A stretch of DNA of 64,000 bases from a virus. The notes beneath the pieces were generated by a model, which did not search any database, was not told the DNA's origin, and worked only from the letters and a program-made list of their open reading frames with translations. A program made the translations under genes and the position numbers. How positions within the stretch are numbered: position 1 is the first letter of the stretch; every line of letters starts with the position of its first letter. Positions 2,376-56,762 of this stretch are shown piece after piece. The stretch is taken from IMG/VR virus record IMGVR_UViG_3300045988_176431, positions 64,001 to 128,000 of that record. One strand, 5' to 3'.

Positions 2376-5300
2376 ATGGAAAAAAAGAGTAAAGAGTTTA
2401 ATATACTCATCTCAGTTCCAGAGATTACTAATAAAAAAGATATGAAGAAGTTTTTAAAACCGATTTATATCATAGAAGATTATCTGTTAGATGAATCTCG
2501 TTATGGAGATTTAGAACAGACTATCAGAAATCTTCTTCGTGGATGTTTTCATATTAAAGAATGTAGAGAATATCCAATTGAGTTTAAGTTTTATCGAAAA
2601 GATAAAGAAACACATAAGTTGCAGATTCGAAGATTTTTATATAATCTTTATATTTGGAAACCATTTTGCATGTTAAATGAATTTCATATTCTGGATGAAA
2701 ATTATATTCTTTCAGAAGAAGAAATTCCAAATGTAACAGAGTTTTTGAACGAAAAAATACTTACCACTCTTCAGGATTATAACATTGAACAGATTTTGAT
2801 TAACGAATCAATCTCTAATGTATTATATAGTCTCCGTTCAATTTCATTAGATTTTAGTGATATTATGAATCTTACTTTTAGTGATCATGATTTCATTGAG
2901 ATGTTAAATGATCCAGAATATCGAGAGATTATGGAATTAAAGATTCCTGAAGATATGCAACCAATTGAAGTAGAAAAACTACTTTCTCAGTATCAACAAA
3001 GGTTGGTGAGAAAGTTAAAACAAGATAAAAATAATCCAGTAGGAATCATGCTTAGGGCTGGAACTGGTGTAAAAGAAAAACAGTTAGCAGAGTATATGAT
3101 TGCTATGGGATTGAAGCCAACATTAACTGGTGAAGTTATGCCTATACCAATTGAAACATCATCTCTATTAGGAGGTTTAAATAGACCATCGTATCAGTAC
3201 ATTGATGCGATAGCAGCCCGTAAACCGTAAACATAATCTGCGGTTTTAAAACCTATCTAATTGCGGGGAACTGTCTATAATGATTATTTACTAACTTATG
3301 ATGGTGACATACATAAGGGCAAGGGGTAACTCCTAAGGTATAGTAAAAAGAATAATCATTGACACAATCGACGCAGCGAAGTATCTTATTTATTTCATAA
3401 TAAATCATTATAAAGGAGATGATTTAATATGAAAGAAACATGGAAAAAATTTATTTATAATGATATCGAAACAAAATATAGCGTTTCTAATTTAGGAAGA
3501 GTTAGAAATGATAATACTAATTATATATTAAAACCACATGTTCATAAAAAGACAAAATATCACATGATCCCACTTACAATAAATGGAAAAACTAAATTGT
3601 TTAGCTTATCTAGAATGGTGGCAACATTATTTATACCAAATCCAAATAATTATGAAGAAGTAGATCATGTTACTTGTGATAGATATAGAAATGAAGCTCA
3701 TAATCTTGAATGGGTTACTCATGAAGAAAACATGAGAAGAGCGTTAGTAAACGGACTCGTTTACAAAAACGATGGAAGTATGAGATATGTATTTCATAAT
3801 GAAAATGATATTAGAAAATTATGTGAATTATTATCAAATACATGTATCCCTGTTGATGAGTTGTCTAAAATAACGAACATTAGTCAAAATACTATAAATA
3901 AAATACGACTAGGTAAAAGATGGAGAAATATATCAAAGGATTATGATTTTTCTGAATATAATAAATTTATACAAAAAAATTATATTATATCTCATTCTGG
4001 AGAAAATAATTCACAATCAAAGTATCCAGATACATTGGTACATTCTATATGTCATGAACTAGAATTAAACAGAAAAACAATAAGTGAAATTGCAAAAATG
4101 TTTAATGTTCAGAAGAATTACGTATATGAATTAAGAATAGGAAAAGTTAGAACCTTGATTAGTTCTCAATATGATGTAAGCAATCATGATTTAACCGAGT
4201 TTGGATATCATCAAAAAGATTTAAACAAAATAAATGTTTTATTGAAAAAGGGCTATACTGTCCGTGAAATTATAAATAAATTAAATCTTCCAGATAACAA
4301 GAAAACTATAGCAATGATATATGGAAGAAAAAGAAATATGAAATAAATAAGATATGAGTTCAACGACTATCGAAAGTATAGTTATAAGAGAAATCTTATA
4401 ATGAATAAACGAGTAGAGTAGACCAGAATATCTGGGTGCACGAAATTGGTGCTTTGCGAAACGGTAGGTATTATAAATATGGTAATAGTATTTATAATAA
4501 AGATATAGTCTATACATTATGGTGACATAATGAATTATTAGTGATTATGAATAAGAAATCAATGGGAAATGCAGGCTACTTCGGGAAGAAAGTATCTGAA
4601 TTATGTAGGACTGTATCTCTTTCTAATAAGGTTTTAAATTGTAAAACAAAGCATTTGATTAAATATGAGATTAAAAATAAGAAATATCTTATGAAATTAA
4701 ATGGTAAGTTTTATAAGATGAATCCTGATGATGAAGATTATAAGGTACTACATTATAAAGATTACGATTTGGTTGGTAAAACTATTTATGCAAGAGGGGC
4801 ACAAACATGTGCTTGTGGACAGAATCTTATTTGTCCGACATGTCTTGGAAAAATTGCGGATTTGAACTGGGATTTGAAAGATGGTATTGGTGTATTTGAG
4901 TCTCAGGAATTATCAAAAGATATTGAACAGAAGATTCTTTCTGGTAAACATCTGTTAACAACAAAGTCAGAGAAGATTGAATTTAGCGATGAATTCTATC
5001 AGTATTTTTCAATTGCTGTTGGAGAGATTTCTCCTATCTTTGATAATATTGATAATATCAATGATTTGGCAATTTACGTTGTACCAGAAGAGATTGAGAA
5101 AGTAGAAGAATATGATGCAGATTCTACTTATAATACTTATATTTCATCTGGAAGATTCTTTGTAAGAAATCTTAAAACAAAGAAAGATATTGAAGTTAAG
5201 ATTTTGAAAAAGAAAGAATTGTATATTACAAGCAATGTCATTAAATCAATTCGTAATAATAATGGTGTAATTAAGTTTAAGGATTTGGAAGAAGATGCTC

Positions 5301-5791
5301 CAATCTTTGAAGTTATCATCTTGAATAATGAGTTAACAAAGCCACTATACGAGTTAATCTCTTTATTGGATTCTGAGAAAAAAGAAACAATTGAAGACAG
5401 TACAATTGATACGTTCTCACAAAGATTTTTGGATATTATCATTGAATCTGGAATTGGAGCGTCAATGGTTGCTGCTGAAATTGTAATGAATCGTCTAATA
5501 CGAGAAAGTGATAATGTGATGGATCGTCCAGATTTCTCACAAGAGAAAATGCCAGATTATAATATTTATACGATTCGAAAGATACTTAGAAACAATGAGA
5601 GTATTACAATTGGTTTGGGATTTGAAAACTTAAAAGCTCAGTTATTAAATCCAAATGTTTCTCAGAGAACAGCACCATCTTATATGGATGCTTATTTCAA
5701 AGAAGAACTTCCTACAGAAATTTTAAAGAAGTTTGAACAAGAGGAACCAAAGAAAAAGCAGATGGATTATTATCTAAATGCTTCACACTAG
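2376..5791 (+). CDS. multisubunit RNA polymerase beta'-like subunit, C-terminal half (exons 2376-3228 and 4542-5791)
   Basis: Exon 1 ends ...LRAGTGVKEKQLAEYMIAMGLKPTLTGEVMPIPIETSSLLGGLNRPSYQYIDAIAARKP. Exon 2 continues (L)IMNKKSMGNAGYFGKKV. The join is colinear with bacterial beta' SGARG..Q..QL.GMRGLMA.P.G.II..PI...F.EGL...EY.IS.[24 protein letters not shown]. Interrupted by intron 1. Confidence 0.8.
3229..4541 (+). mobile_element. group I intron 1 (1313 nt, carries an HNH endonuclease ORF)
   Basis: P1 is exon AAACCGT paired with IGS GCGGTTT, with a terminal U-G. Core elements AATTGCGGGG (P), CGACGCAGCG (Q), GAGTTCAACGACTATCG (R) and AAGATATAGTCTA (S) are present. The 3' splice site after G4541 is the only in-frame, stop-free solution for a phase-1 exon. 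Confidence 0.85.
3429..4346 (+). CDS. intron-encoded HNH homing endonuclease, I-HmuI-like (NUMOD4 + HNH + HTH repeats)
   Basis: YSVSNLGRVRN (NUMOD4-like), EVDHVTCDRYRNEAHNLEWVTHEENMRRA (HNH_3-like) and C-terminal repeats ..ISQNTINKIRLGKRW... AAAGGAG RBS. The ORF sits in the P6 loop of intron 1. Confidence 0.8.
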   Translation: MKETWKKFIYNDIETKYSVSNLGRVRNDNTNYILKPHVHKKTKYHMIPLTINGKTKLFSLSRMVATLFIPNPNNYEEVDHVTCDRYRNEAHNLEWVTHEENMRRALVNGLVYKNDGSMRYVFHNENDIRKLCELLSNTCIPVDELSKITNISQNTINKIRLGKRWRNISKDYDFSEYNKFIQKNYIISHSGENNSQSKYPDTLVHSICHELELNRKTISEIAKMFNVQKNYVYELRIGKVRTLISSQYDVSNHDLTEFGYHQKDLNKINVLLKKGYTVREIINKLNLPDNKKTIAMIYGRKRNMK

Positions 5792-7939: not shown

Positions 7940-8022
7940 TTGATTATAGATAAAATCAATATCTTATATTCTATTTTTTTTATTACTTTTTTTTAATATT
8001 TTAAGAAATGAGGTATTTTTAT

Positions 8023-10103: not shown

Positions 10104-10118
10104 TTGGAGGATATAGTT

Positions 10119-12771
10119 TTGCCAGAAATACAAAAATATAACTTAAAAGATGAGTTAAAGGCTGCTGATGAGGAATATAAAAATTCAACAGCCCTTGTTG
10201 GTATGTCGGCATTAACTGAACCAAGATATACAAACTCAACAAGAACTCAAATGTTTACAAGTCATTTGAAACAGTTTTTGAATCTCATTCAACCGGAATT
10301 TCCAAGGGTGTTTACAAATGCAGAAAACGTAGTAGGAAAACATTCTTCTGCATATTACAAAACTAAAAATGACTTAGAAATTATTGAAAAGATTGAAAAG
10401 TATGGAGACATCTTAGAAGTGCCTTACATATATCATTTATTTGTATTTGACAAAAAGAAAAAACGTTATCGTGTTATTACACGAAAAGAAGTAGAAGAAA
10501 ATCTGACAGAGGATTTTGGTTATCATATGAATAATGAAGAGATTGACAGTTTTAAAGAAGGAGATATCATCCCAAAAGGAGATATTCTTTATAAGTCGAA
10601 TTCATATGATGAATCTATGAATTATCGTTATGGAGTAAATGCAACAGTACAGTATGTATTAAATCCATATACATCAGAAGATGCTGCTGATGTATCAGAA
10701 TCTTTTGCAAAGAAAATGACAACTTTGAAAGTGAAGAAAATTCCTTGGGGATTAAATAACAATGATATTCCTCTTAATTTATTTGGAGATGATGATGAAT
10801 ATAAGCCATATCCAGATATTGGAGAACCAGCATGTGGAATCTTTGGATGTTCAAGACCTCAATATAATGATCAGTTGTTGTTTGATTTTAAAGATTCAAA
10901 TTTAAGAACGATTAAAGATTCAGACCGTCCAGTATCATATCCAGGAAAAGGATTTATTGTCGATTATGAGATTTATTGTAATAATCCAGACATTGAAGAG
11001 AATTCTTTTAATAGTCAGATTATGACGTATTTAAAATCTCAGACAAAATACTGGAAAAAGATTTATAAAACAACAAAGAAGATTATTAATTCTGGTTATG
11101 ATTATGACAGAGAAATTGATTATCTTTATAAACGTGCAGATGAGTTTTTAGATGAAGATAAAAAATGGAAAGACGATTCTGTATTTGGTAACTTAAAAAT
11201 TGTAGCAACGATTGCAGAATATATTCCATTAAGGAAGGGGCATAAATTTACTGGTTAACATAACAGCCAGTCATATTAGGCGACTAATATGTTACAAACT
11301 CCATGAATTGCGGGGAACTCTCGTTAGGTTCTAGTTACTAAACTAAGATAGTGATATACTTAGTGGCAAAGGGTAACTCCTAAGGTATAGTAAAAAGACT
11401 AGAAATAGAGACAATCGACGCAGGGAAGTATCTTAATAATATAAGATATGACTTCAACGACTATCGAAAGTATAGGTTAAGAGAAATACTTAACTGAATA
11501 AACGAGTAGAGTAGACCAGAAGTCTGGGTGCACGAAATTGGTGCTTTACGAAGTGTGGAGCTCTTTATATTTGGTGACAGAATATAAAGATGAAGATATA
11601 GTCTAATCTATACTGAGAAGTATAGCTGTATAAAAACAGATATAAGTGTAACGAACTTATATGAATAATCATGCGTTATGGAAACAAATCTGTTGTTTCA
11701 CGAGTATTACCCGATAAAGATATGCCTCATACAAAAGATGGAAAAACTGTTGACGTTCGATTAAACTTATTAGCCATTATCAACCGTACAACAGGGTTTG
11801 TTCCTCATGAGTTATTTATTAACTTCATTTGTGATAGAGCAAGGGAGCAAATGAAAAAAGCAACTACGTTGAAAGAAAAAGAAAATATACTCTTTTCAAT
11901 CATTAAAGATTTGAATGAAAAACAGTATAAAAGTATGTATGCTTATTATAAAGATTTGAAAGATACAAAATTGAAAAAAGAATACATTGATGATTGTATT
12001 TATGAAGGTATCTTTATTCATCAGAATCCTGTTTCTGAAGATGAACCAATTCTTTATAAATTACAAAAGATGACAAAGAAATATAATTGGTTGGAACCTT
12101 ATCAGTTATATGTAACAATCGATGGTCACGAGATTCCTCAGATGATAAAAACTTACATGGGTGAGATGTACATGATTCGATTGAAACAAACTGACCAAAA
12201 GAATTTCTCGGTACGAAATACAGGAGCAATTAATACAAAAGAATTACCAGAACGAAGCTATAAGAATCGAAATCATCAGGATTTATATTCAGATAAAGCA
12301 ATTCGTTTTGGTGAGTATGAAACTCTTGCTATTATGACAGGTCTTTCAGAAGAAGAACTTGCTCTTTTCCATGCCTATTATCGTACTTCTATTAAAGGTA
12401 GAAAAGATGTGATTTCTCATATCTTTGAACCAGAAAAGAAATTAAGTGAAATTGATTCTTCACTTACAAATCGAACAGCAGAACTTTTTAATGTTATCTT
12501 TAAAGCATTATCAAATGAAATTGAATTTATTGATAGTGATAATATCGTAAAATCAATGGATAATATTCATGTTCAAGAATACACATATCATGGACAAACA
12601 TATTTCATGACAGAATATGAATTTTATCTATTTAAATTAGAAGATGAATTAAAAGAGAAGATTCTGTTAGAAACTCCTGGTTTAACAGATGAAGAATTAG
12701 ATGAGAGATTACATGAAGAATTAAAAGCATCTAAGAGAATTATGGGTGAACCTGTAAAAGATATGAAATAA
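10119..12771 (+). CDS. multisubunit RNA polymerase beta-like subunit, C-terminal half (exons 10119-11255 and 11674-12771)
   Basis: The splice joins ...RKGHKFTG|RYGNKSVVSRVLPDKDMPHTKDGKTVDVRLNLLAIINR. This equals bacterial beta K.aGRHGNKGVvS...MP...dG...D..LNPLGVPSRMN. TTG 10119 lies 8 nt after GGAGG. Confidence 0.85.
11256..11673 (+). mobile_element. group I intron 2 (418 nt, ORF-less, extended P1-P2 variant)
   Basis: P1 is exon ACTGGT paired with IGS GCCAGT, with a terminal U-G. The same P/Q/R/S core is present. The 3' splice site after G11673 gives an exact G|RYGNK junction. Confidence 0.85.
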
Positions 12772-18818: not shown

Positions 18819-21800
18819 TTGATTAAATATCTTAAAAATTATGCTTCTGAATTTGAAAGAGATTTAAATATTCCTCTTATGAACAAAGAAGCAGATAGAC
18901 CATTAGTTGAATATGTAATTGATTCATGGAAATCATTACAGATTCTTGATGGTATCGAATTTCTTGATTATGAGTATACAGAAAAAGAATCTGATATTGA
19001 GATTAATAAGTATATTTATAAACGTGAGAAAGGAAAACGCAAAAACGAGAAATTTGATTACAAATTTGTGGATGATAGTAGATGTGGACTTCTTACTGTC
19101 CGTATGAAATTATCTGCAATTGAAAAAGATTTCAAAACAGGTGATACGTATTTAAAAGAAAAAATTATTAAAAAGAGTATGTTGATTCCTTTACAGGATG
19201 ACAAAGGACTATTCTGTATCAAAGGAAAAAATTACTATTTGATTTAGTTTGATAGATCAAACAAAACTCTTCTAATTGCGGGGAACTCTCGTTAGGTCTT
19301 AACTACTAAACTAAGATGGTGACATACTTAGTGACAAGGGGTAACTCCTAAGGTATAGTAAAAAGGTTAAGAATAGAGACAATCGACGCAGCGAAGTATC
19401 TTATAAATAATAAGGTATAAGATATGAGTTCAACGACTATCGAAAGGATAGCATAAGAGAAATACTTATGTGAATAACTGAGTAGAGTAGACTAGTATAT
19501 ATTATACTAGGTGTACGAAATTGGTACTTTACGAAATGGAGAGCATATTATATTTGGTAATAGAATATAATGTGAAGATATAGTCTAATCCTCATGGATA
19601 ACATGATGGTGTAAATGTATCAGATGGTAGAAAAATCTACCTATACGTCAAATAATTCTGTTATTTTGAAATCTTTAATGCCTTTTATGATAAAAAGACA
19701 AATAACAAAACAGGAAGATATTCATGAAAATGAATATCAGATTCCTTATTATACCATTGATTTGTTTCGAAAAGATATTCCGATTATGCTTCTTTATGCA
19801 TCCAAAGGAATGAATCGTGCGTTACAATATGCTATTCAATCCTATCCTTATGTAGCAATTAACTTTGTTACAAAACCAAAAGAAACGGACAAAAAGCATA
19901 TTTATTTCCAGATATCTTCTAAGTTGTACTTAAAAGTACATAAGAAGTTATTTGAAAAGTTTCCATATATCCAATCCGTAGTTGGTGGTATTTTACATAT
20001 CTCAACGAATCGATTGACATTGGATAAATTGGATAATACAGATATCTGGATTAAGAAATTAAGTAATAATAACATTGAAAAAGGAAAGAATCTTTTAGAT
20101 TCTTTAAAACGTCTTTTAGATGTAACTACAAAGAAAATATTAAAAACAGATATATCAAACAAATTAGATGTACTTGCTGTTATTCGTTGGATGAGTCAAG
20201 ATTTCAATGAATTACGAATGAAAGATAATATGAATATTGAAAATAAGCGATTACGATGTAATGAATACATTGCATCTTTACTGACACAAGAATTTAGTAA
20301 GAAACTTAATCGTATTATGTCTCTAGGTGGAAAAGCAACCATTGATAATCTTAGAGAAATTTTCAAATTTCCAGGCGATAGAATTAGAGTGTCGCCGTTA
20401 AACCTATCTAATTGCGGGAAACTCTCGTTATGTTCTAGTTACTAAACTAAGATGGTGACATACTTAGTGGCAAAGGGTAACTCCTAAGGTATAGTAAAAA
20501 GACTAGAAATAGAGACAATCGACGCAGCGAAGTATCTTATAAGTATAAGATATGAGTTCAACGACTATCGAAAGGATAGCATAAGAGAAATACTTATGTG
20601 AATAACTGAGTAGAGTAGACTAGTATATATAAATACTAGGTGTACGAAATTTGTACTTTACGAAACGGTAGGCTCTTTATATTTGGTAATAGAATATAAA
20701 GATGAAGATATAGTCTAAACTTTATGGATAACATAGAGAATGATTCTAATTCAGAAGATGCATAGTAGTGGTGTATTCCGATTTGATGATAACATCAACG
20801 ATATGGATTTCTTTTCAAGGTTCAAATTCACGAATAAAGGACCTCACTCTGCAGGACAAAAGAATGGAAATAGTGTTGGTGTTAAGTACAGGGGTATGGT
20901 TGAATGCTCCTGTAAAACTCTTCTAATTGCGGGGAACTCTCGTTAAGTCTTAACTACTAACTTATGATAGTAATATACATAAGGGCAAGGGGTAACTCCT
21001 AAGGTATAGTAAAAAGGTTAAGAATAGAGACAATCGACGCAGCGAAGTATCTTCTATATATAAAATGGAAAGGAGGCAAAATCAAATGAAAAAAGTAATT
21101 GATTGTAAAAGAGTGATGCATGATAATATAAAATTAAATTATTTTATATTTACTGATGGAAGTATATTTAATGCTACAACTAATCATGAATTAAAACAAT
21201 ATAAAGATAAAGATGGATATCCTACAGTTTGTTTATCCAATAAAGGAAAACATTGGACAATTCATGTTCATCGATTAGTTGCGTTAACATTTATTCCAAA
21301 TCCATTAAATAAACCAGAAGTTAATCATATAGATGGTAATAAATCAAATAATGATATTAGTAATTTAGAATGGGTTACTGGAAGTGAAAATGTAAGACAC
21401 GCCTATCTCAATGGTTTACATGATAATGTAGCGATTGGTGAGAAACATGGTATGAATAAATATACTGAAAAACAAATTAAACATGTTTGTCAATTATTAG
21501 AAGAAAATTCTAATACACTCAATGAAATTGCTGAACTAACAAATGTTCCAAAATCAACAATTCATGATATTATATCAGAAAAATACTGGACTCATATTTC
21601 TAAAAAATATAAAATATCAAATTTTGATAAAAAATCTATTAGACGGTTAGATTCTCAAATGAAAAATGAAATGAGATATCTAATAAGAAAAGGATATCGT
21701 CAATGTGATATTTTAAGACATTTTAATTTAGAGACTAGTAAAAAGAATTATGGAATGATTAAAAGATATTATTATAAAATAAAAGAAGATACAAGTTCAT

Positions 21801-22381
21801 CGACTATCGAAAGTATAGGTTAAGAGAAATACTTAACTGAATAAACGAGTAGAGTAGACTGATCAATCAGGTGCACGAAATTGGTGCTTTGCGAAACGGA
21901 GAGCATATTATATTTGGTAATAGAATATAATATGAAGATATAGTCAGGTTATACAGTGATGTGTAAGTTTTAGATTCACCCATCAATGATTGGATATATT
22001 GATATGACTGTTTGCGGTAATTCTGACCCAGGCACATCGGGGCTTCTCTCGCCCTTTAGTAAGTTAAAAGGATTATCTTTTAATGATGATATGGAGCCAG
22101 ATAATTTTAAGTTTGAGTTCATAAAAGAGGTTAAGAAGATTATGGATGAAGAAGGAATTGATTATATTGATCTTGACTTTGAGAAGAAAGAAGATTACTA
22201 TTCCTTTGTCAATACTCTTCATGACTTTAATGTGGATAACATTCATGTCAATTATATTGAACGAGAAAAGGAATATGATAAAGTTATTCAAGAAGAGGAA
22301 GAAGATTTAGAAGAAACTTTATCATTCCAAAATAATAAACCAAAGAAGGATGATAAGAAAAAAGAAGCAAAGAAGAAATAA
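18819..22381 (+). CDS. multisubunit RNA polymerase beta-like subunit, N-terminal half (exons 18819-19244, 19618-20379, 20743-20895 and 21974-22381)
   Basis: Spliced junctions are ..FCIKGKNYYLI|YQMVEKS.., ..FKFPGD|ILIQKMHSSGVFRFDDNINDMDFFSRFKFTNKGPHSAGQKNGNSVGVKYRG and |IHPSMIGYIDMTVCGNSDPGTSGLL. These align with beta [63 protein letters not shown]. TTG start after AAAGGGGG. Confidence 0.8.
19245..19617 (+). mobile_element. group I intron 3 (373 nt, ORF-less)
   Basis: P1 is TTTGATT paired with GATCAAA, with a terminal U-G. The 3' splice site after G19617 is forced, because an in-frame TAA lies immediately upstream. Confidence 0.85.
20380..20742 (+). mobile_element. group I intron 4 (363 nt, ORF-less)
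   Basis: P1 is GGCGAT paired with GTCGCC. The 3' splice site after G20742 follows the P9 hairpin CTTTATG-gataa-CATAGAG. The alternative at 20736 is less likely. Confidence 0.8.
20896..21973 (+). mobile_element. group I intron 5 (1078 nt, carries an HNH endonuclease ORF)
   Basis: P1 is AGGGGT paired with GCTCCT. The 3' splice site after TAG (G21973) is forced by an in-frame stop. The junction KYRG|IHPS equals VRDVHPS. Confidence 0.85.
21086..21823 (+). CDS. intron-encoded HNH homing endonuclease, I-HmuI-like
   Basis: HRLVALTFIPNPLNKPEVNHIDGNKSNNDISNLEWVTGSENVRHA (HNH_3-like) plus an HTH, IAELTNVPKSTIHDIISEKYW. ATG 21086 follows GGAAAGGAGG. The last codons (..SSSTIESIG) run into the intron R element. 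Confidence 0.8.
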   Translation: MKKVIDCKRVMHDNIKLNYFIFTDGSIFNATTNHELKQYKDKDGYPTVCLSNKGKHWTIHVHRLVALTFIPNPLNKPEVNHIDGNKSNNDISNLEWVTGSENVRHAYLNGLHDNVAIGEKHGMNKYTEKQIKHVCQLLEENSNTLNEIAELTNVPKSTIHDIISEKYWTHISKKYKISNFDKKSIRRLDSQMKNEMRYLIRKGYRQCDILRHFNLETSKKNYGMIKRYYYKIKEDTSSSTIESIG

Positions 22382-33668: not shown

Positions 33669-33803
33669 GTAAGTTTACTTTACTTACTTAACACAAATAT
33701 ATTATATAAATATGATATTTAATTATACACATAGTTTTCTCTTATCTATCTTTTTATGTTAGATTTGACAAGTTTTTAAGTAAATTTGAAAGGGGAATTG
33801 ATA

Positions 33804-43782: not shown

Positions 43783-46700
43783 ATGAAATATTTGCCAGTT
43801 AAAAAATCTAATCCAGTAGAGGAAATTGATCGCTCAAAATTAAAGAGCAAAATCAATATCTGGAAACCAAAGAAATCTGAGATTATAGTGGAACAAGATG
43901 GAAATATTTTTGTCTGTCATTTTGACAAGATTTTCAATCAACCAAATCTCAAACCCTTAACTAAATTTATTATTAAAAAATCTAGTTATATCAACCAATT
44001 ACCAGTCATTACAAGGTATACAAACTTTTTCATGAATTGTTATGATACAGAGAATGACTTAGCAATGGCTTATTTGAAGATTAAGTATGCTCTTGATAAA
44101 GAGAGAGTATTTAATGAAACAAATACTTCTGCATTAATTGATATGATATATGAGATTCTTTTTACACCAAGGCTTTGTGAAAAGATTACTCGTATGGTAG
44201 AAGAAAATTACTTAGATGATATCGAAAAAGGGGATGGAAAGAAATATAAAAAGAATAAAGACTACTTAGAAAGTCTTGAATTCACCAATGAACATATTAA
44301 GATTCTTCTTAGAATCTCATTTGGTATTAAAATCATGTCACCGATTCTTTTTCATTATCTTACGATTAATAATATGAATAAGTTGGATAAAGACAGTGAT
44401 TTGATTTACAAGTTCTATGAAAGACTGTTTCCTTTGTTCTCCGGAAACGTCAATATGTTTAATAAGCTCTTTGTTTATTGTAAAACAAAAGTACTGGATG
44501 CATCTGCACATAACAGTACAATCTTTGAACAAAGAGAAATTTTTGGTGTAGATAAGTATTCAGTTATTGATAAATTTGTGAGAAAAGTAATTATCTCAGA
44601 AAACATGGTTAAAGTATTTGATCATGTAAAACCTCTCTAATTGCGGGGAACTCTCGTTAGGTCTTAACTACTAAACTAAGATAGTGATATACTTAGTGGC
44701 AAGGGGTAACTCCTAAGGTATAGTAAAAAGGTTAAGAATAGAGACAATCGACGCAGGGAAGTATCTCTTATGAGATATGGCTTCATCGACTAGGGAAAGA
44801 CTAATTTATATTAATTAGAATCGAGTAGGTCCAATTATAGGACGAAATGTAGGTGAGTATATATAATATATACAAAAATCCGAAACGGGAGGCATTGATA
44901 TATTTAGTAATAGAATATATTAATGAAGATATAGTCAGTGTAATATAAAAACATGAAATACTTGTTCAATGAACACTGGGATAGACGTTTCATGTTCCAG
45001 TATAAAAACCTCTCTAATTGCGGGGAACTGTCTATAATGATTATTTACTAAACTAAGATGGTGACATACTTAGTGGCAAGGGGTAACTCCTAAGGTATAG
45101 TAAAAAGAATAATCATTGACACAATCGACGCAGCGAAGTATCTTATATGAGATATGAGTTCAACGACTATCGAAAGTATAATTATAAGAGAAATCTTATA
45201 ATGAATAAACGAGTAGAGTAGACTGATTTAATCAGGTGCATGAAATTGATGCTTTACGAAACGGGAGGTATTGATATATTTGGTAATAGAATATATCAAT
45301 AAAGATATAGTCTAATTAAAATAGGTGAAACAGAAAAAATACAAGGAGAACATTGTTGGATCAATATTAGGTTCAACCAAAACCTCTCTAATTGCGGGGA
45401 ACTATCTATAATTAATAACTACTAAACTAAGATAGTGATATACTTAGTGGCAAAGGGTAACTCCTAAGGTATAGTAAAAAGGTTATTAATTGATACAATC
45501 GACGCAGCGAAGTATCTCTTATGAGATATGAGTTCAACGACTAGGGAAAGCTAGACAACCATATTGATAGAAATATCTAAAAGAATATAATATTCTGATG
45601 GTTTGATGTGAGTAGGTCCAATGATAGGACGAAATGTAGGTGAGTATATATAATATATACAAAAATCCAAAACGGGAGGTATTGATATATTTGGTAATAG
45701 AATATATCAATAAAGATATAGTCTACATTGAAAAATGTGTTAATAAAACGATTAATTTAATAGTCGCAATGATATAAAGAAATTTATATCTGGACAAACC
45801 ATCCTAATTGCGGGGAACTCTCGTTAGGTCTTAACTACTAAACTAAGATAGTGATATACTTAGTGGCAAGGGGTAACTCCTAAGGTATAGTAAAAAGGTT
45901 AAGAATAGAGACAATCGACGCAGCGAATATGCTTTGAAATAAATAATAACATGTAAAGAAATAGGAGATAGATTAGGAATGACAAGAAATGCTGTTTGGA
46001 ATATTAAACAAAAAATAAATTAAACAAAATCAAAGCATAATGTTCAACGACTATCGAAAGTATAGGTTAAGAGAAATACTTAACTGAATAAACGAGTAGA
46101 GTAGACTGATTTAATCAGGTGCACGAAATTGGTGCTTTACGAAACGGATGGCGTATTATATTTGGTAACAGAATATAATACGAAGATATAGTCTAACCTA
46201 TGTAGTGATATATGGTATAAGTGTATTAAATTTCAGATGAATTATTTTCTTAAGGAGCAGTATGAGAAAACAATGACCGAGATTTCTAACACAAAAAATA
46301 GTGATGGATTATCCGGTCAAGATAAAATGGAAATGAATTTGACTAAGATTGATGAAGGTATCACAACTCTTAGTGAGTTCAATATTAAGAATTGTATTGA
46401 ACGTATTCAAAGAGAGATTGATATTCCAATCTCAGATGAAGAAATTCAATATTATAGGGACCATCATATTCCTAGCCCTATTCAGATTCAATTGGTATAT
46501 TCGTACTTTGCAGAATATTTTACGGATTATCGTGATTTGAACCTTTTAACAAGAAGAGATTATCTTCATTTATTACTTTTATTAAAGAAGAAACTCTTAA
46601 TTGAGGCTGGATATGATGAGAAAGAAAATGAATTTACAGATGCGATTCTTCCATATATTCTAACAGGAAATTTGGAAGAAAAAGTTTCTACTCGAATGAT

Positions 46701-46941
46701 TCGAAACAACAAGTTTATTTCAAAGATTGAAACGAATTATATGTATCAACAGTTAGTAGAAAAGAAGTATAAGCATCTGCAAGAATTAAAGAAAGACTAC
46801 ATATTACAAGTATTATCTTCGATTATCAATACGAATTTTACTTATGTAGTTTATGAGGAACCTGAAATGTTAGGAAAACCAATTGTTTATAATGAAGATA
46901 AAATCTCGGATGAACTCTTGTTTTTCTTAAAATGTATTTAA
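43783..46941 (+). CDS. hypothetical protein interrupted by four tandem group I introns (exons 43783-44610, 44956-44982, about 45325-45361, about 45738-45752, and about 46224/46237-46941)
   Basis: The ORF 43783-44640 runs into the intron P element, and the ORF ending at 46941 resumes after intron 10. The first three 5' splice sites are well supported. The last two micro-exon boundaries and their reading phase could not be resolved by hand. The start may be TTG 43792. Confidence 0.5.
44611..44955 (+). mobile_element. group I intron 7 (345 nt, ORF-less, type-B 3' half)
   Basis: P1 is CATGGTT paired with GATCATG. The 3' splice site after ..AACATG gives the in-frame 27-nt exon KYLFNEHWD. Confidence 0.75.
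44983..45324 (+). mobile_element. group I intron 8 (about 342 nt, ORF-less, type-A 3' half)
   Basis: P1 is CTGGGAT paired with GTTCCAG (7 bp, terminal U-G). The 3' end is provisional. Confidence 0.7.
45362..45737 (+). mobile_element. group I intron 9 (about 376 nt, ORF-less, type-B 3' half with an extra insertion)
   Basis: P1 is GTTGGAT paired with GTTCAAC (7 bp, terminal U-G). The 3' end is provisional. Confidence 0.7.
45753..46236 (+). mobile_element. group I intron 10 (about 484 nt, extended P1-P2 variant, degenerate ORF remnant in P6)
   Basis: The core P/Q/R/S elements are intact. P1 is only CGAT paired with GTCG, placed by analogy with introns 2 and 6. Both ends are provisional. A mini-ORF lies at 45979-46023. 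Confidence 0.6.
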
Positions 46942-47742: not shown

Positions 47743-47743
47743 T

Positions 47744-49377: not shown

Positions 49378-49409
49378 ATGAAATATTGATTCATATTGAT
49401 TCATAAAGT

Positions 49410-49419
49410 TATATATTAT
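49410..49419 (+). promoter_or_regulatory. TATATATTAT motif, copy g
   Basis: Exact 10-mer followed by the hairpin 49433-49467 (AAAATGAGTAGAAAT/ATTTCTACTCATTTT), then the RBS of 49501. Confidence 0.35.
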
Positions 49420-49500
49420 TTATATGAGTGATAAAATGAGTAGAAATTTAATATTTCTACTCATTTTCATATGAATAAAGAAAGGATGATGTAAAAATTT

Positions 49501-50208: not shown

Positions 50209-50225
50209 AGAAAGGAGATTATATT

Positions 50226-52853: not shown

Positions 52854-52902
52854 ATGTGAAGTCAAATATCTATAATTGGATATTTGACTTCACATTATTT
52901 TA
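52854..52902 (+). terminator. hairpin or terminator upstream of the beta'-N gene
   Basis: 17-bp stem ATGTGAAGTCAAATATC / GATATTTGACTTCACAT followed by TATTTT. Confidence 0.55.
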
Positions 52903-52925
52903 AAATTTTATTTAATAAAAGGAGT

Positions 52926-55900
52926 GTGATTTTTGTTTTGGGTAAACAAATTGTAAGAATCAATCGACTCAGTTGGGATATTTTATTTTATGATGATATG
53001 ATAAATGGTGATGGTTTTATCATATCAGAACCTGCTGAAGTAAAAATCGATCGAGAAAGAAAAAAGTCTCTTTATGGTCCACAATCTCCACTCTATGGTA
53101 CAACGTATTCAGATGAGCAGGCATTTATTGAACGTTATCGTTGTGAGTGTGGAAATTTTAAAGGAAGACAATTTGCAGGGGAAGTATGCCCCATTTGTAA
53201 AACAAAAATTGAAAGTAAAGGAAGTAATGTAAAAACAACAGGATGGATTTGTACCGGAAATGCAAGATTTATTAATCCATTCTTTTATCAGCTTCTTGTA
53301 AAAGCGATTGGAAAGAAAATCTTTCCAGATATTATTGATTGTAAACAACGTGTCGATACAGATGGACACCGAAGTCAATATGTACCAGAAGATACAGAAC
53401 CACTTTCTCCTTATTCTGGATTTGGTATTGAAGAATTCATGAACCAATATGAAAATATTCTTACTTATTTTCAGACAGTAAGAAAACAAAAATACGATGA
53501 TCTTCAATATCTAAAAGAGAACAAATCTAAAGTATTTGCTTCTCATATTCCGATTTATACGACAATGTTACGTCCGCAAAGTGTCACAAGTGATACTTTT
53601 TATTTTAATGGTATTGATCGAGAAATCAATCCTCTCTTTAATCTTTCAGAAAGTATTAAAGATTGTAATCCAATTGAGCGTCCATTTATCTTACAAAGAA
53701 TACAAGAGCGTGTAAACAACATCTTTGAATTTAACTTTGATATGATTAATGGTAAAGAAGGATGGATTCGAGGAAAACTATTAGGTGGCTCGTTAGTGCG
53801 TTATAATTTGACGAGCTTTATAAACTCATCTAATTGCGGGGAACTCTCGTTAAGTCTTAACTACTAAACTAAGATGGTAACATACTTAGTGGCAAGGGGT
53901 AACTCCTAAGGTATAGTAAAAAGGTTAAGAATAGAGACAATCGACGCATCGAAGTATCTTAATATTATTATATATTTATAAGAAAGGTGGTGAGATAATG
54001 ACGTCACATATTATAAAATTTAACAACATGGACAGTGATTATGTCATTTATGAAGATTGCACAATTATTAATATAAAAACTAATCATATTATGAAACATC
54101 GAATAAGTAAAAGTACAGGACGAGTGTATGTTCGTTTAACTAATAATAAAAAAAGAAAAGAATATAGATTATCAAGATTAATGGCTACATATTTTGTAGA
54201 AAATCCTGATCCAAAAAATAAAGTTGATGTTCATCATAAAGATAAAAATGTATTAAATAATGTACCAAGTAATTTGCAATGGGTTACAAAAGAAGAACAT
54301 TATTTGATACATAAAGGTGATAAAAATCATCCATTTTCTAGTGGTGAAAATCATAGTGGTGCTATATTAACTAATGATCAAGTACATGAAATATGTAAAT
54401 TGATTCAAGATAACATTATGTCTCAAAATGATATTGCGAGAAAATATAAAGTAATGCCACATGTTATTCATGAGATTCGTTTAAAACATAATTGGAATGA
54501 AATAACAAAATATTACGATTTTTCAAAATATTCGTATGGGAATAATTTTCTAAAAGATGATAAAGTAAAAGAAATTTGTTATCTGATTGAATCAAATAAG
54601 TATACATTGATGGAAATATCAAAAAAATCAAAAGTTACTTATTCTACAATTCTTGATATTTATCATAAAAAACGATATAAAAGACTAAGTGATAATTATG
54701 ATTTTGATAGATTCAATAAGTTAACAAGATATAGCAAAGGACTTAAGAAAAAAATAAATTTTTTAATTAATGAAGGAAAATCAAATAATGAAATTAAAAA
54801 TATATTAAAATTAGATAATTGTGCAAAAACGAATACTCTATTGTGTAGAGAAAGAAAGAAATCAAATCAATAAAAAAATAATATTAAGATATGAGTTCAA
54901 CGACTATCGAAAGTATAGCATAAGAGAAATACTTATGTGAATAAACGAGTAGAGTAGACTAGTATATATTATACTAGGTGCATGAAAATTGATGCTTTAC
55001 GAAACGGTGAGTGTATTATATTTGGTAACAGAATATAATATAATGATATAGTCTAAACTTCTATGGATAACATAGAGAATATTTGAAATTATACGGCTCG
55101 TAACGTAATTATTCCAGATCCATCTTTACATGATGGGGAAATTGATGTATCTTATCATACATTTAGAATCTTATTTAAATATAAGATTATTTATTATATG
55201 ATGAAGATTAACGACATACAGTTATCAAAAGCATATCATAAATGGAAGAATAGTTATAAGTTTAATCAACACATTTATGAAATTATGTTGTACATCTTAA
55301 AGAAAGAAAAACCAAGAATATTAATCAATCGAAATCCGACACTAATAGAAGTTTGGTGTCATTAAACTCTTCTAATTGCGGGGAACTCTCGTTAAGTCTT
55401 AACTACTAAACTAAGATGGTAACATACTTAGTGGCAAAGGGTAACTCCTAAGGTATAGTAAAAATGTTAAGAATAGAGACAATCGACGCAGCGAAGTATC
55501 TTCAATATATAAAAATACTATAGTAATTGAGAGGTGATAAATATTGCCAAAGAAAAGAAAGAAATTAAGTGAATTTCTTTTATCATATTATAAATTAATA
55601 GAAGAAAGTGATGAAAAAGAATTATGGAAAGATATTAATTTAGGAGACTTCCCAATATACCAAATAAGTAATCATGGTAGAGTTCGAAGGAAAGATAGTA
55701 AATTCATAATTAATCCTTTTCATTCTTATCGAAAAGATAATAATGGTAACTTTAGATATGATAGACCAACTTATCTCAGAGTTCAATTATATTATTACAC
55801 TAATGGGGTAAGAATGAAAAAACATATGGAAATAAGTAGGCTTGTTGCAATAAATTTTATACCTATACCAAAAATATATACTGATAAGGGATTAGATGAG

Positions 55901-56762
55901 AATTCTTTAGAAGTAAATCATATAAAAGGTGGTTATGAAATTTACAATAATTTTGTATCAAATTTAGAATTGTGTACAACAAAAGAAAATGTAAAAAAAT
56001 CAATTGAAACAGGTTTGAGACATTCACCGTATGGAGAGAATCATCATAATACATTTTTTACAGAATATGATGTGATGCAAATATGTGAATGTATTGAAAA
56101 AGGTTTTAATGCAAAGTATACTTATTATAATATTGATTTATCTGATAAATCAATAACATATGATCATTTTAAACAAAATTTTTATAGTATAAAATATAAG
56201 AAATCTTGGAAATTTATAAGTCAAAATTATAATTTTTAATTTATTGAAGATATGAGTTCATCGACTAGGGAAAGCTAGACAACCATATTGATAGAAATAT
56301 CTAAAAGGACTCCACATCCTGATGGTTTGATAAGCGAGTAGGTCCAATCATAGGACGAAATGTAGGTGAGTATATATAATATATACAAAAATCCGAAATG
56401 GAGAGCAATGATATATTTGGTAACAGAATATATTAATGAAGATATAGTCAAACTGTATAGAGATATACTAGATTTATTGGAATTTCTATTCATTACTTTT
56501 AATGAAAATAAGAAATGTAAAAAAGGATGATACAGATTTTACATTATCGGTTCCACTTGCGATTTTACCGGGATTAAATGCCGATTTCGATGGAGATGTT
56601 CTTAATATGCTTGGTATGATGAATGAAGAATTCGTGAGAATGTTCAGAAAGTTTGACCCAATTAAGCGAATGATTATTTCAAGAGATACCGGACTTATCA
56701 ATAATTATTTTACAATTGAAAAGTCACAATTGATTGATTTATATCATTTTGCTACAGTATAG
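52926..56762 (+). CDS. multisubunit RNA polymerase beta'-like subunit, N-terminal half with the catalytic NADFDGD loop (exons about 52926-53794, 55086-55343 and 56480-56762)
   Basis: Zn finger RCECGNFKGRQFAGEVCPICKTKIE. Junction GKLLGGS-L-NYTARNVIIPDPSLHDGE equals LLGKRVDYSGRSVIvvGP.L. Junction LINRNPT-L-NFYSLLL...LSVPLAILPGLNADFDGDVLNM equals LLNRAPTLHR...NADFDGDQM. The track start TTG 52884 lies inside the hairpin; GTG 52926 or TTG 52938 follow AAAAGGAG. Confidence 0.8.
53795..55085 (+). mobile_element. group I intron 11 (1291 nt, carries an HNH endonuclease ORF)
   Basis: P1 is GCTCGTT paired with GACGAGC (7 bp, terminal U-G), giving phase 2. The only compatible 3' splice site is after G55085, because TGA lies in frame just upstream. 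Confidence 0.85.
53998..54873 (+). CDS. intron-encoded HNH homing endonuclease, I-HmuI-like
   Basis: SRLMATYFVENPDPKNKVDVHHKDKNVLNNVPSNLQWVTKEEH, plus HTH repeats (IARKYKVMPHVIHEIRLKHNW and ISKKSKVTYSTILDIYHKKRY). AAAGGTGGTG RBS. Confidence 0.75.
   Translation: MTSHIIKFNNMDSDYVIYEDCTIINIKTNHIMKHRISKSTGRVYVRLTNNKKRKEYRLSRLMATYFVENPDPKNKVDVHHKDKNVLNNVPSNLQWVTKEEHYLIHKGDKNHPFSSGENHSGAILTNDQVHEICKLIQDNIMSQNDIARKYKVMPHVIHEIRLKHNWNEITKYYDFSKYSYGNNFLKDDKVKEICYLIESNKYTLMEISKKSKVTYSTILDIYHKKRYKRLSDNYDFDRFNKLTRYSKGLKKKINFLINEGKSNNEIKNILKLDNCAKTNTLLCRERKKSNQ
55344..56479 (+). mobile_element. group I intron 12 (1136 nt, carries an HNH endonuclease ORF, type-B 3' half)
   Basis: P1 is GACACT paired with GGTGTC, giving phase 2. 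The 3' splice site after G56479 is the best stop-free solution. The alternative after G56512 would delete 11 aa. Confidence 0.75.
55544..56239 (+). CDS. intron-encoded HNH homing endonuclease, I-HmuI-like (shorter)
   Basis: YQISNHGRVRR (NUMOD4-like) and SRLVAINFIPIP...EVNHIKGGYEIYNNFVSNLELCTTKENV. TTG start 7 nt after GAGAGGTG. Confidence 0.7.
   Translation: MPKKRKKLSEFLLSYYKLIEESDEKELWKDINLGDFPIYQISNHGRVRRKDSKFIINPFHSYRKDNNGNFRYDRPTYLRVQLYYYTNGVRMKKHMEISRLVAINFIPIPKIYTDKGLDENSLEVNHIKGGYEIYNNFVSNLELCTTKENVKKSIETGLRHSPYGENHHNTFFTEYDVMQICECIEKGFNAKYTYYNIDLSDKSITYDHFKQNFYSIKYKKSWKFISQNYNF

Follow-up and report, generated by a model that had tools for sequence, protein, structure and literature searches.

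The window analysed here, a 64,000-nt stretch of DNA from a phage genome, raises the question of what a block of about 130 nt, repeated 12 times on one strand, represents within polymerase genes, and whether those genes can still give rise to intact messages. Its source is a human-gut jumbo phage of ~250 kb that is a distant relative of Bacillus phage AR9, to whose proteins the window proteins are 25–30% identical. With a probability of about 90%, the window holds 12 group I introns of a single family, all on the + strand, which interrupt six polymerase genes and are predicted to be removed by splicing. The comparison genome, referred to below as the relative, is an IMG/VR contig (3300045988_176405; 249 kb) that is 96–99% identical to the window and carries at least 24 copies of the family.

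The intron family and its host genes

Three sequence blocks define the family. The P block AATTGCGGGGAACTC has 12 + strand matches against 0.43 expected and the R block GAGTTCAACGACTATCGAAAG has 11 against 0 expected, both scored at three or fewer mismatches; the R block of the twelfth copy, intron 7, reads GGCTTCATCGACTAGGGAAAG, and one S block, GAAGATATAGTC, lies downstream of each P block. These counts agree with the earlier note, which had described 12 recurrent + strand blocks followed by downstream elements, and its span of 3229–56479 runs exactly from the first base of intron 1 to the last base of intron 12. Its estimate of about 8.8 kb of intron sequence, or about 14% of the window, becomes 8,812 nt (13.8%), and its six interrupted genes were counted again here. 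Its description of the copies as near-identical was too strong, because whole cores are only 67–91% identical to each other (median 79%), with 74–98% identity (median 88%) in the 5' block of ~130 nt. Introns without an open reading frame (ORF) have a full size of 342–471 nt and those with one measure 1.1–1.3 kb, at a density of one intron per 5.3 kb. The interrupted genes encode the five AR9-type non-virion RNA polymerase (RNAP) subunits together with a family B DNA polymerase; the introns spare all remaining genes in the 64 kb.

2376..5791, + strand: g1, non-virion RNAP beta' C-terminal subunit, 2 exons, 700 aa when spliced
10104..12771, + strand: g2, non-virion RNAP beta C-terminal subunit, 2 exons, start codon provisional
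18819..22381, + strand: g3, non-virion RNAP beta N-terminal subunit, 4 exons
33786..37231, + strand: g4, family B DNA polymerase, 2 exons
43783..46941, + strand: g5, homologue of the fifth (gp226-type) non-virion RNAP subunit of AR9, 540 aa when spliced
52884..56762, + strand: g6, non-virion RNAP beta' N-terminal subunit with the NADFDGD motif, 3 exons

The gene assignments rest on matches of the products to phrog_3015 (1.3e-54) and 7S00_D (3.9e-46) for g1, Pfam Rpb2_6 and 7S00_C (5.2e-90) for g2, 7S00_c (4.8e-52, in a single stretch over residues 66–485) for g3, 7S01_A (3.3e-13) and phrog_25005 for g5, and phrog_2987 (3.2e-56) and 7S01_d (2.9e-39) for g6. Each spliced RNAP product forms one continuous alignment with its AR9 subunit, with the junctions shown free of gaps; the exception is g5, whose AR9 match is weak (53 bits) and gapped near the junctions. 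Both halves of g4 match Pfam divDNApol, and the gene gives a single continuous alignment of ~706 columns with AR9 gp152.

Predicted ribozyme fold and splice sites

Each intron RNA would adopt a standard ribozyme core of helices P3 to P9, with peripheral hairpins between P7 and the 3' strand of P3. Within its first 15–30 nt, a stretch antisense to the intron's own insertion site would pair in two parts: one with the last 4–9 nt of the upstream exon (P1), ending in a U·G pair at the cleavage site, and the adjoining one with the first 3–11 nt of the downstream exon (P10). P7 would bind a free guanosine, which would attack after the P1 U; the exon end released in this way would in turn attack after the terminal G of the intron, joining the exons into intact messages for the five non-virion RNAP subunits and the DNA polymerase. 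It is from such features that we infer self-splicing of the introns. The introns outside g5 are as follows, with a slash marking the splice junction.

3229..4541, + strand: intron 1, 1313 nt, in g1, with an HNH gene; junction AARKP-L-IMNKK; P1 of 7 bp with U·G, P10 of 7 bp, terminal G
11256..11673, + strand: intron 2, 418 nt, in g2, no ORF, P2 hairpin; junction KFTG/RYGNK; P1 6 bp, P10 6 bp
19245..19617, + strand: intron 3, 373 nt, in g3; junction NYYLI/YQMVE; P1 7 bp, P10 8 bp
20380..20742, + strand: intron 4, 363 nt, in g3; junction FPGD/ILIQK; P1 6 bp, P10 10 bp; site common to the window and the relative
20896..21973, + strand: intron 5, 1078 nt, in g3, with an HNH gene; junction KYRG/IHPSM; P1 9 bp, P10 5 bp
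35269..36572, + strand: intron 6, 1304 nt, in g4, with an HNH gene, extended P1, P2; junction DVKG-F-DFKKS; P1 of 5 bp with U·G, P10 3 bp
53795..55085, + strand: intron 11, 1291 nt, in g6, with an HNH gene; junction LLGGS-L-NYTARNVI; P1 8 bp, P10 8 bp
55344..56479, + strand: intron 12, 1136 nt, in g6, with an endonuclease-like gene; junction NRNPT-L-NFYSL, on the upstream side of NADFDGD; P1 6 bp, P10 11 bp

In all 12 copies, P1 places a U(-1)·G pair at the 5' splice site, the last intron base is a terminal G, and a P10 of 3–11 bp pairs with the 3' exon. A predictor using P1 and P10 only, and blind to reading frame, put the sites that restore the frame at the top of its ranking in 10 of 12 cases. 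Removal of the introns leaves one continuous ORF in each of the six genes; without splicing, an in-frame stop occurs no more than 101 nt past each 5' splice site. The four rejoined motifs proposed earlier (KFTG/RYGNK, LLGGS-L-NYTARNVI, AARKP-L and KYRG/IHPSM) were all reproduced, and splice sites have now been fixed for introns 3, 4, 6, 7–10 and 12, which had been left unplaced. Junctions are ungapped relative to AR9 chain 7S00_D for intron 1, 7S00_C for intron 2, 7S00_c for intron 3 and 7S01_d for introns 11 and 12, as is the intron 6 junction in the best alignment with AR9 gp152.

The fold was evaluated across 25 copies. From P3 to P8, including the P3/P7 pseudoknot, 96.5% of cells are paired, as opposed to 36–45% in slid controls; 41 pairs have changed on both sides, and the covariation score is 0.392, compared with 0.074 or less in slid controls. 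None of 500 shuffles matched the observed values. Every core helix stays paired throughout, the catalytic helices P4 and P7 being invariant in all 25 copies and compensatory changes being abundant in P3, P5a, P5b, P6a and P8. The peripheral hairpins between P7 and P3' are arranged as in subgroup IA, and the family is similar to the introns of subgroup IA2 found in the Staphylococcus phages Twort and K. The Rfam search proposed in the earlier note (RF00028) succeeded in part: full-length matches (model positions 1–253) were obtained at six copies, all without an ORF, of which introns 2 (65.6 bits), 3 (59.9) and 4 (57.1) scored above the curated threshold and introns 8 (43.6), 10 (37.3) and 9 (34.4) below it, while intron 7 and the five ORF-containing introns were not detected in the window. 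The group I interpretation itself is supported by the fold, the splice signals, Rfam, colinearity with homologues and the empty and occupied alleles described below.

The weaker of these signals bear on an alternative that we consider unlikely, namely that some copies, with introns 6 and 10 and members of the tandem array in g5 the likeliest, have decayed and no longer self-splice, so that the gene is broken in this metagenomic genome or splicing needs a protein cofactor or neighbouring introns. The shortest exon pairings belong to intron 6 (P10 of only 3 bp, weaker than in any other copy) and intron 10 (P1 of only 4 bp), introns 8–10 fall below the Rfam threshold at 34–44 bits and intron 7 is missed; moreover, decay does occur in the family, because one intron-borne HNH gene of the relative is split between two frames. 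However, the invariance of P4 and P7 and the pairing of all helices noted above extend to the suspect copies, the U·G pair, terminal G and reading frame are kept in 12 of 12, and the relative is occupied at the same four g5 sites. The hosts are the phage's own RNA and DNA polymerase genes, and their exons are 95–98% conserved between strains, which argues for selection on the spliced product.

The tandem array in g5 and the close relative

Four consecutive introns interrupt g5, whose five exons measure 828, 27, 37, 13 and 718 nt.

44611..44955, + strand: intron 7, 345 nt, first of the four, with a variant P7.1/7.2 module; junction ISENMV/KYLFN; P1 8 bp, P10 8 bp
44956..44982, + strand: micro-exon 2, 27 nt, KYLFNEHWD
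44983..45324, + strand: intron 8, 342 nt; RF00028 E 2.4e-09; P1 8 bp, P10 7 bp
45325..45361, + strand: micro-exon 3, 37 nt, VKQKKYKENIVG plus 1 nt, placed by homologues, pairing and the relative
45362..45739, + strand: intron 9, 378 nt; RF00028 E 1.3e-06; P1 7 bp, P10 6 bp
45740..45752, + strand: micro-exon 4, 13 nt, TTAATAAAACGAT, the same in the relative
45753..46223, + strand: intron 10, 471 nt, P2 hairpin present, P6 enlarged by ~90 nt of non-coding insert; P1 of 4 bp with U·G, P10 9 bp

Homologues of g5 without interruption exist (at most 78% identity) and read ...ENI(I/V)GFNKTIIK(F/Y)Q.... The intron 7 junction is colinear with them, as is micro-exon 2 (P0001 being among the homologues compared), and the exon structure around the latter is identical in the relative. 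The bounds of micro-exon 4 are set by the homologues reading GFNKTIIKFQ; the start of intron 10 at 45753 leaves the 13-nt exon, of which 6 nt lie in P10 of intron 9 and 4 nt in P1 of intron 10. The tandem introns 7–9 have P3 sequences in common. Hybrid folding and the skipping of exons, as reported for Twort, could reduce the spliced yield of g5, and loss of the 37-nt or 13-nt exon by skipping would shift its reading frame.

Repeats of this kind invite the suspicion that an assembler inserted, duplicated or collapsed copies, making their number or order unreal. The whole array is present in only one assembly of the window strain, the window having the same sequence as one MEGAHIT contig obtained from a human gut sample; the others break at the intron repeat, three shorter ones at 44665, inside the conserved block, and a fourth at 44755, and the repeats reach 98% identity over ~130 nt. 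Nevertheless, the guide of each copy matches its own flanking exons, which a misjoin would not produce, and the exons between the tandem introns are correctly ordered and colinear with intron-free homologues. The relative, an independent IMG/VR assembly, is occupied at all 12 window sites, and exon sequence is kept where the two genomes differ, the opposite of collapse. An assembly artefact appears very improbable.

Seven additional introns of the relative correspond to exact empty sites in the window. Intron numbers in the window and the relative are 1 vs 2 in g1, 2 vs 5 in g3 and 4 vs 6 in g5, where all four window sites are occupied in the relative and one exon is 10 nt long, and the spliced coding sequences of these three genes align between the genomes with zero gaps. 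Judged from these sequences, intron gain and loss is recent, as at least eight sites distinguish genomes that are 96–99% identical. Close to several of the empty sites (within 25 nt), divergence rises to 10–16%, against a background of 1.7–2.2% in g3 and g5 and 4.8% in g1.

Endonuclease genes and comparison with other phages

HNH-type endonuclease genes occupy the P6a loop of introns 1, 5, 6, 11 and 12. All five ORFs are mutually homologous; three pass the Pfam curated cut-off for HNH_3 or NUMOD4, and one more matches HNH_3 weakly.

3429..4346, + strand: HNH homing-endonuclease gene in intron 1, 305 aa; NUMOD4 2.2e-08, with HNH_3 and HTH matches under the curated cut-offs; AAAGGAG upstream of the ATG
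21065..21823, + strand: HNH gene in intron 5, 252 aa; HNH_3 7.5e-11; the true start is likely the ATG at 21086
35504..36346, + strand: HNH/HTH gene in intron 6, 280 aa; HTH_7 4.9e-06, HNH_3 weak; 36% identical to the intron 5 ORF
53998..54873, + strand: HNH gene in intron 11, 291 aa; HNH_3 1.6e-07
55544..56239, + strand: NUMOD4/HNH-like gene in intron 12, 231 aa, TTG start; NUMOD4 1.7e-05; 26–32% identical to the other intron ORFs

The 3' end of the intron 5 gene overlaps the 3' strand of P6a, the R element (at 21793) and P7. The counterparts of all five introns in the relative are without an endonuclease gene: the intron 6 ORF is missing, and the versions of introns 5, 11 and 12 measure 358, 373 and 362 nt and contain no ORF. 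Based on domain content and this polymorphism, we infer endonuclease activity and homing, in which the enzymes would nick or cut alleles lacking the intron in co-infecting relatives, with repair then installing a copy of it. Recombination among copies swaps modules between introns.

In addition to being mobile, the introns may be more than passengers, with the endonucleases acting as weapons that cut the intron-less polymerase genes of co-infecting relatives, with splicing gating production of the late (non-virion) RNAP, or both. This extension of the intron reading, which would not replace it, is offered tentatively and we think the odds are against it. It would fit the confinement of the introns to the five RNAP subunit genes and the DNA polymerase gene, the differences in intron and endonuclease content between two co-circulating strains at many sites, and the raised divergence beside empty sites. 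A precedent is PhiPA3, in which a group I intron with the endonuclease gp210 in an RNAP gene of a jumbo phage mediates interference competition (PMC11620839). The arrangement is similar in the window, with group I introns and homing endonuclease genes inside RNAP subunit genes of a jumbo phage, but PhiPA3 has a single intron, for which interference competition is demonstrated. Furthermore, selfish homing elements prefer conserved polymerase motifs anyway, and the relative's lack of endonuclease genes in the five counterpart introns speaks against such roles.

The family as such is a known kind of element. The Twort gene ORF142 harbours three introns of group I (subgroup IA2) with a 23-nt internal exon and exhibits exon skipping (PMC10136302), and g5 likewise combines several closely related introns in one phage gene with very short intervening exons; the window core matches Twort-like and K-like staphylococcal phages at 73–82% identity. 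Unlike Twort, the window has four introns in one gene (six in the relative), separated by exons of 27, 37 and 13 nt (10 nt in the relative), and a single family present 12 times in 64 kb of a jumbo phage, in RNAP subunit genes. The K-like polA intron, which encodes the HNH endonuclease I-KsaIII, is among the best annotated DNA matches listed (73% identity over nt 19–195 of intron 3); it shares with intron 6 a seat in a DNA polymerase gene and an HNH-type endonuclease, but differs in insertion site and polymerase family, and K-like phages have few introns per genome rather than a swarm. In AR9 and MarsHill-type jumbo phages, RNAP genes are disrupted by introns whose number and position vary between relatives (10.1101/2020.12.14.422802). 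The interrupted gene set, non-virion RNAP subunits and DNA polymerase, is the same, yet the AR9 DNA polymerase is uninterrupted, unlike g4, and all five non-virion subunits are interrupted here by one intron family. In a blastn search with a window intron, the 40 of 219 matches listed were to herelleviruses and a Vibrio phage, with no AR9-group jumbo-phage record among them.

The earlier note had called the intron density exceptional. Locally it is unusually high, at the upper extreme, although earlier publications describe dense introns in the jumbo phages AR9, MarsHill and the Jug phages, with Twort ORF142 also cited, and such density is less unheard-of than the note believed. In Jug phages, a genome of 360–402 kb has on average 18.5 predicted group I introns, about half of those tested being confirmed by metatranscriptome reads (PMC12880540). 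They, too, are jumbo phages of the human gut whose essential genes house numerous group I introns and HNH genes, but their introns are short (~206 nt) and number approximately one per 20 kb, and the window phage belongs to a different lineage.

Copy number, fold, and putative subgroup of the intron core

The twelve plus-strand introns of the window, numbered here in window order, share one set of conserved core blocks. The P block, AATTGCGGGGAACTC, has 12 plus-strand matches at three or fewer mismatches, versus 0.43 expected by chance, and the R block has 11 at the same tolerance, versus 0 expected, with intron 7 carrying a variant as the twelfth copy; the S block, GAAGATATAGTC, lies downstream of each P block. 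The twelve copies claimed in the earlier note were thereby recovered, and its reading of the blocks as the classical P, Q, R, and S elements was upheld by alignment to the Rfam group I model, which puts AAUUGCGGG, CGCAGC, GUUCAACGACUA, and AAGAUAUAGUC at exactly the P, Q, R, and S consensus positions. Its description of the copies as near-identical was too strong, as the 5' block is 74–98% identical between pairs (median 88%) and whole cores are 67–91% identical (median 79%).

Membership in the Rfam family RF00028 is set by a curated score of 50 bits, and the search that the earlier note had proposed placed introns 2 (65.6 bits), 3 (59.9 bits), and 4 (57.1 bits) above it, but not the other nine of the twelve. 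Introns 8 (43.6 bits), 10 (37.3 bits), and 9 (34.4 bits) were reported below the threshold (E-values of 2e-09 to 1e-06), and all six reported introns are ORF-less, full-length matches. This search gave no report for intron 7 or for the five ORF-bearing introns, misses that are plausibly explained by P6 inserts of 0.8–1 kb and a variant P7.1/7.2 module; the variant module is also found in intron 9, which Rfam did detect. The G+C content of ORF-less introns (31–34%) is slightly higher than that of the window (28%).

The fold was assessed in 25 distinct cores (the 12 of the window plus 13 of related contigs), aligned with ORF and loop inserts taken out, using a structure drawn by hand that contains P3, P4, P5, P5a-c, P6a, P7 (pseudoknot), three hairpins between P7 and P3', and P8. 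Its 78 pairs in 14 helices are standard pairs in 96.5% of cells, versus 36–45% when partners are slid by 1–3 columns, and its covariation score is 0.392, whereas the slid versions do not exceed 0.074; the observed values were not reached in any of 500 shuffles. Compensatory change is extensive, with 41 pairs varying on both sides among the 25 copies. The catalytic helices P4 and P7 are invariant, and compensatory changes are abundant in P3, P5a, P5b, P6a, and P8. A placement of P5 one column off left 46% of that helix paired and was replaced by a corrected register, in which pairing is 100%. The family has the conserved core expected of a group I intron: helices P3–P8, a pseudoknot of P3 with P7, and pairing of P with Q and of R with S.

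Introns of subgroup IA2, the type found in T4 td and in Twort, have two extra helices, P7.1 and P7.2, inserted between P7 and P3', and any ORF lies in a peripheral loop. The present family has three covarying hairpins (helices 10–13) between P7 and P3', and ORFs of 231–305 aa occupy the P6a loop of introns 1, 5, 6, 11, and 12. Introns of Twort-like and K-like staphylococcal phages, among them a polA intron annotated with I-KsaIII, share 73–82% identity with its core, and a putative assignment of the family to subgroup IA2 rests on this similarity together with the architecture. Each peripheral module occurs in 3–11 variants that are combined differently between introns, which points to recombination between intron copies.

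SPO1-like Bacillus phages and a small number of other phages gave weaker core matches. In exact searches, a 21-mer of the family was recovered from 23 metagenome stretches and 7 viral contigs, mostly as one copy per stretch, and was absent from the representative genomes of bacteria and archaea that were scanned. A 20-mer of the P5c-P5a region was found only in a close relative of the window, a 249-kb IMG/VR contig. The mostly single copies elsewhere and the confinement of this 20-mer make the intron swarm a feature of this lineage.

Predicted splice sites and the interrupted genes

Each intron was located by three signs: a U, the last base of the upstream exon, paired with a G in the guide sequence (P1), a terminal G of the intron, and P10, in which the start of the downstream exon pairs with nucleotides just 5' of the P1 strand. 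All three are present in each of the 12 copies, with a P1 of 4–9 bp that includes the U·G pair and a P10 of 3–11 bp. The weakest P10 of the set is that of intron 6, and exon pairing is weakest in introns 6 and 10. The boundaries are as follows.

Introns of the window (coordinates, strand, feature)
3229-4541, +, intron 1, in g1
11256-11673, +, intron 2, in g2
19245-19617, +, intron 3, in g3
20380-20742, +, intron 4, in g3
20896-21973, +, intron 5, in g3
35269-36572, +, intron 6, in g4
44611-44955, +, intron 7, in g5
44983-45324, +, intron 8, in g5
45362-45739, +, intron 9, in g5
45753-46223, +, intron 10, in g5
53795-55085, +, intron 11, in g6
55344-56479, +, intron 12, in g6

These boundaries sum to 8,812 nt, or 13.8% of the window, in agreement with the earlier estimate of about 8.8 kb and 14%. 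In a blind control, in which P1 and P10 pairing alone was scored without reading-frame information, the frame-restoring site pair ranked first in 10 of the 12 introns, second for intron 9, and outside the top three for intron 6, the intron with a weak P10.

Two boundaries were chosen among candidates. For intron 10, a 5' splice site after ...GCAATGAT, leaving an exon 4 of 34 nt, kept the frame, yet it lacked the U·G pair and added seven residues (INLIVAM) that are absent from every homologue when the uninterrupted homologues are aligned. The site after AAAACGAT, which gives a 13-nt exon, a U·G pair, and a P10 of 9 bp, was adopted because the uninterrupted homologues read GFNKTIIKFQ. For intron 6, four junction combinations were compared with the AR9 DNA polymerase, and GGGTT/.../TTGAC gave the sole ungapped alignment and the best score, with the U·G pair present; at a rejected site after TTAACGT, that U would face an A. 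The resulting exons of 27, 37, and 13 nt place introns 7–10 of g5 within 77 nt of coding sequence. An in-frame stop lies within 101 nt of the start of every intron, so that unspliced RNA would yield truncated proteins.

Removal of the introns leaves a single open frame in each of six genes, as the earlier note had proposed, and the predicted spliced products of g1, g2, g3, g5, and g6 align in one stretch each with the solved chains of the non-virion RNA polymerase of Bacillus phage AR9.

Interrupted genes and their AR9 counterparts
g1, beta' C-terminal subunit: AR9 7S00_D, E = 3.9e-46
g2, beta C-terminal subunit: AR9 7S00_C, E = 5.2e-90
g3, beta N-terminal subunit: AR9 7S00_c, E = 4.8e-52
g4, family B DNA polymerase: colinear with AR9 gp152, itself uninterrupted
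g5, fifth subunit: AR9 7S01_A, E = 3.3e-13
g6, beta' N-terminal subunit: AR9 7S01_d, E = 2.9e-39

The matches of g1, g2, g3, and g6 are strong and are gap-free at the junctions visible in the printed alignments, whereas that of g5 is far weaker (53 bits) and gapped beside its junction cluster. The insertion sites fall in the most conserved motifs, GRYGNK, RG(I/L)HPS, ARNVI, NRNPTL, and ARK, and every rejoined motif listed in the earlier note was reproduced after intron removal. At the level of sequence, both the observation made in that note and its interpretation as group I introns hold; splicing, endonuclease activity, and homing are inferred.

A tblastn search with the unspliced exons of g5 found no match among 50,697 phage records. 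Despite this empty result, profile and PDB searches linked g5 to the fifth AR9 RNA polymerase subunit, and, in contrast to it, homologues with 45–55% identity are present in the protein database on contigs of about 250–290 kb, some of them from NCBI.

Endonuclease genes and intron turnover between strains

Among the intron ORFs, HNH_3 domains score above the curated cut-off in introns 5 and 11, as do NUMOD4 domains in introns 1 and 12; HNH_3 is weak in the ORFs of introns 1 and 6, and helix-turn-helix modules are also present. This domain content is that of the HNH homing endonucleases of phage introns (I-HmuI, I-TwoI, and I-KsaIII type). The five ORFs are mutually homologous at 26–36% identity and have diverged far more than the ribozymes that carry them. 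The HNH proteins would be predicted to nick or cleave the intron-less allele and to mediate homing. In intron 5, the 3' end of the endonuclease ORF (window 21793-21823) extends into the 3' strand of P6a, the R element, and P7, where ribozyme folding and translation of the ORF would be in competition.

Over 6,858 nt, the window matches a 138-kb human gut metagenome contig at 100% identity, and its proteins are 25–30% identical to those of AR9, PBS1, and staphylococcal jumbo phages. Megablast of the window against known phages matched only the intron core, which indicates that no close sequenced phage is present in the collection searched. The 249-kb relative, which is 96–99% identical to the window, carries at least 24 copies of the intron family in a complement that differs from that of the window, with six introns in g5, six in g3, three in g6, and two in g1. 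Within the stretch of g3 compared, the relative has five introns, one of which flanks a 10-nt exon (CCAGGCACAT), in addition to the shared intron 3. Its counterparts of the five ORF-bearing introns of the window are all ORF-less and 358–514 nt long.

A genome-wide alignment of the window and the relative was unusable in intron-rich stretches because introns aligned to one another, and it was replaced by splice-site prediction for each intron and alignment of spliced coding sequences. For g1, g3, and g5, the alignment of the predicted spliced coding sequences is free of gaps, and the window has exact empty sites at seven of the intron sites of the relative; together these constitute the strongest non-RNA evidence obtained here, both for the placement of the splice sites and for gain or loss in the recent past. 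Cleavage and homing receive indirect support from these occupied and empty alleles, which differ between 96–99% identical genomes, and from raised divergence beside the empty sites: several show 10–16% divergence within 25 nt, versus a background of 1.7–2.2% in g3 and g5 and 4.8% in g1. Either co-conversion tracts or selection against cleavage would produce this pattern.

Clusters of mostly synonymous differences at window 22029-22052, 4559-4582, and 46300-46330 flank intron sites occupied only in the relative, and position -1, where U is needed, is G or C in the window at three empty sites. The relative has an extra intron (L009 3550-4753, 1,204 nt) at window 8828, within a gene (window 8008-9261) of which the window carries an intact copy. 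This intron has a variant P element, TTAACTGCGGGAACATC, and no G at the alignment-implied position of its 3' splice site, and it is probably decaying, since its HNH gene is split between two frames. A 3.1-kb stretch of the window (48171-51312) that is missing from the relative contains three ORFs (398, 235, and 369 aa) with no Pfam matches.

The tandem array of introns 7–10 is represented by one assembly of the strain of the window and, independently, by the assembly of the relative. Four other independent assemblies of the window strain end at window 44665/44755, within or just past the conserved 5' block of intron 7. The intron repeats break short-read metagenome assemblies, and similar swarms elsewhere may be hidden in this way.

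Intron density and other features of the window

The kind of element described here is already known. Jumbo phages of the AR9 and MarsHill types have several group I introns in RNA and DNA polymerase genes, the number varying among relatives (10.1101/2020.12.14.422802), and in the Jug gut phages, whose genomes are about 380 kb, predicted group I introns number 18.5 on average, with about half of those tested confirmed by RNA reads (PMC12880540). Twort ORF142 is interrupted three times; two of its introns resemble each other and belong to subgroup IA2, a 23-nt exon lies between introns, and exon skipping has been reported (PMC10136302). The exceptional density claimed in the earlier note stands in degree, and the sense that it is unprecedented is tempered by the AR9, MarsHill, Twort, and Jug precedents; what stands out is one family at 12 copies in 64 kb. 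All five subunits of the non-virion RNA polymerase are interrupted in the window, and the introns found in tandem within one gene number four in the window (shortest exon 13 nt) and six in the relative (shortest exon 10 nt). Twort ORF142 is less extreme than these arrays, with their exons of 10–37 nt.

In this lineage, six introns fall within about 180 nt of coding sequence of one gene, and in exons as short as 10–13 nt almost every base is committed to P10 of the preceding intron or to P1 of the following one. It is possible, though at a probability of only about 0.3, that the lineage contains the most intron-dense phage genome region described, in which one ribozyme family at 24 or more copies per genome lands preferentially beside existing copies. 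If so, tandem ribozymes that are partly interchangeable would have to splice in order, or cooperatively, for the late RNA polymerase to be expressed correctly, and the strain differences would record an ongoing intron burst, by way of homing, trans mobilization of ORF-less copies, or reverse splicing. Introns 7–9 have P3 sequences in common (alignment rows W7-W9), and mis-splicing among them is therefore a real possibility. The tandem arrays provide a natural test of how similar neighboring group I ribozymes pick their splice sites and avoid exon skipping.

With at least eight intron sites and all five endonuclease genes differing between two strains that are 96–99% identical, the pair offers a direct view of intron gain, intron loss, and endonuclease turnover in nature. 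In the PhiPA3 RNA polymerase gene, an intron endonuclease mediates competition between co-infecting phages (PMC11620839), and the strain differences seen here possibly also reflect such endonuclease-based competition. Annotation pipelines would split the six essential genes into about 20 fragments. Correct splicing models are needed for gut jumbo-phage genomes, and metagenome assemblies are also fragmented by the intron repeats.

Several other features of the window were recorded. A full-length PPK1 polyphosphate kinase gene (25632-27632, plus strand), an unusual auxiliary gene for a phage, matches four PP_kinase domains (E-values of 1e-19 to 9e-68). A gene for a Cpn60/GroEL-type chaperonin of 702 aa (40824-42932, plus strand) is located two genes upstream of g5; its Pfam Cpn60_TCP1 label is a precomputed annotation of an identical ENA contig. 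An 857-aa protein (14938-17511, plus strand) has a sub-threshold SMC_N (RecF/RecN/SMC) match across its two ends and is possibly an SMC-like ATPase. No tRNA genes were found in the whole window, nearly all of its long ORFs are on the plus strand, and cumulative GC skew climbs steadily throughout.
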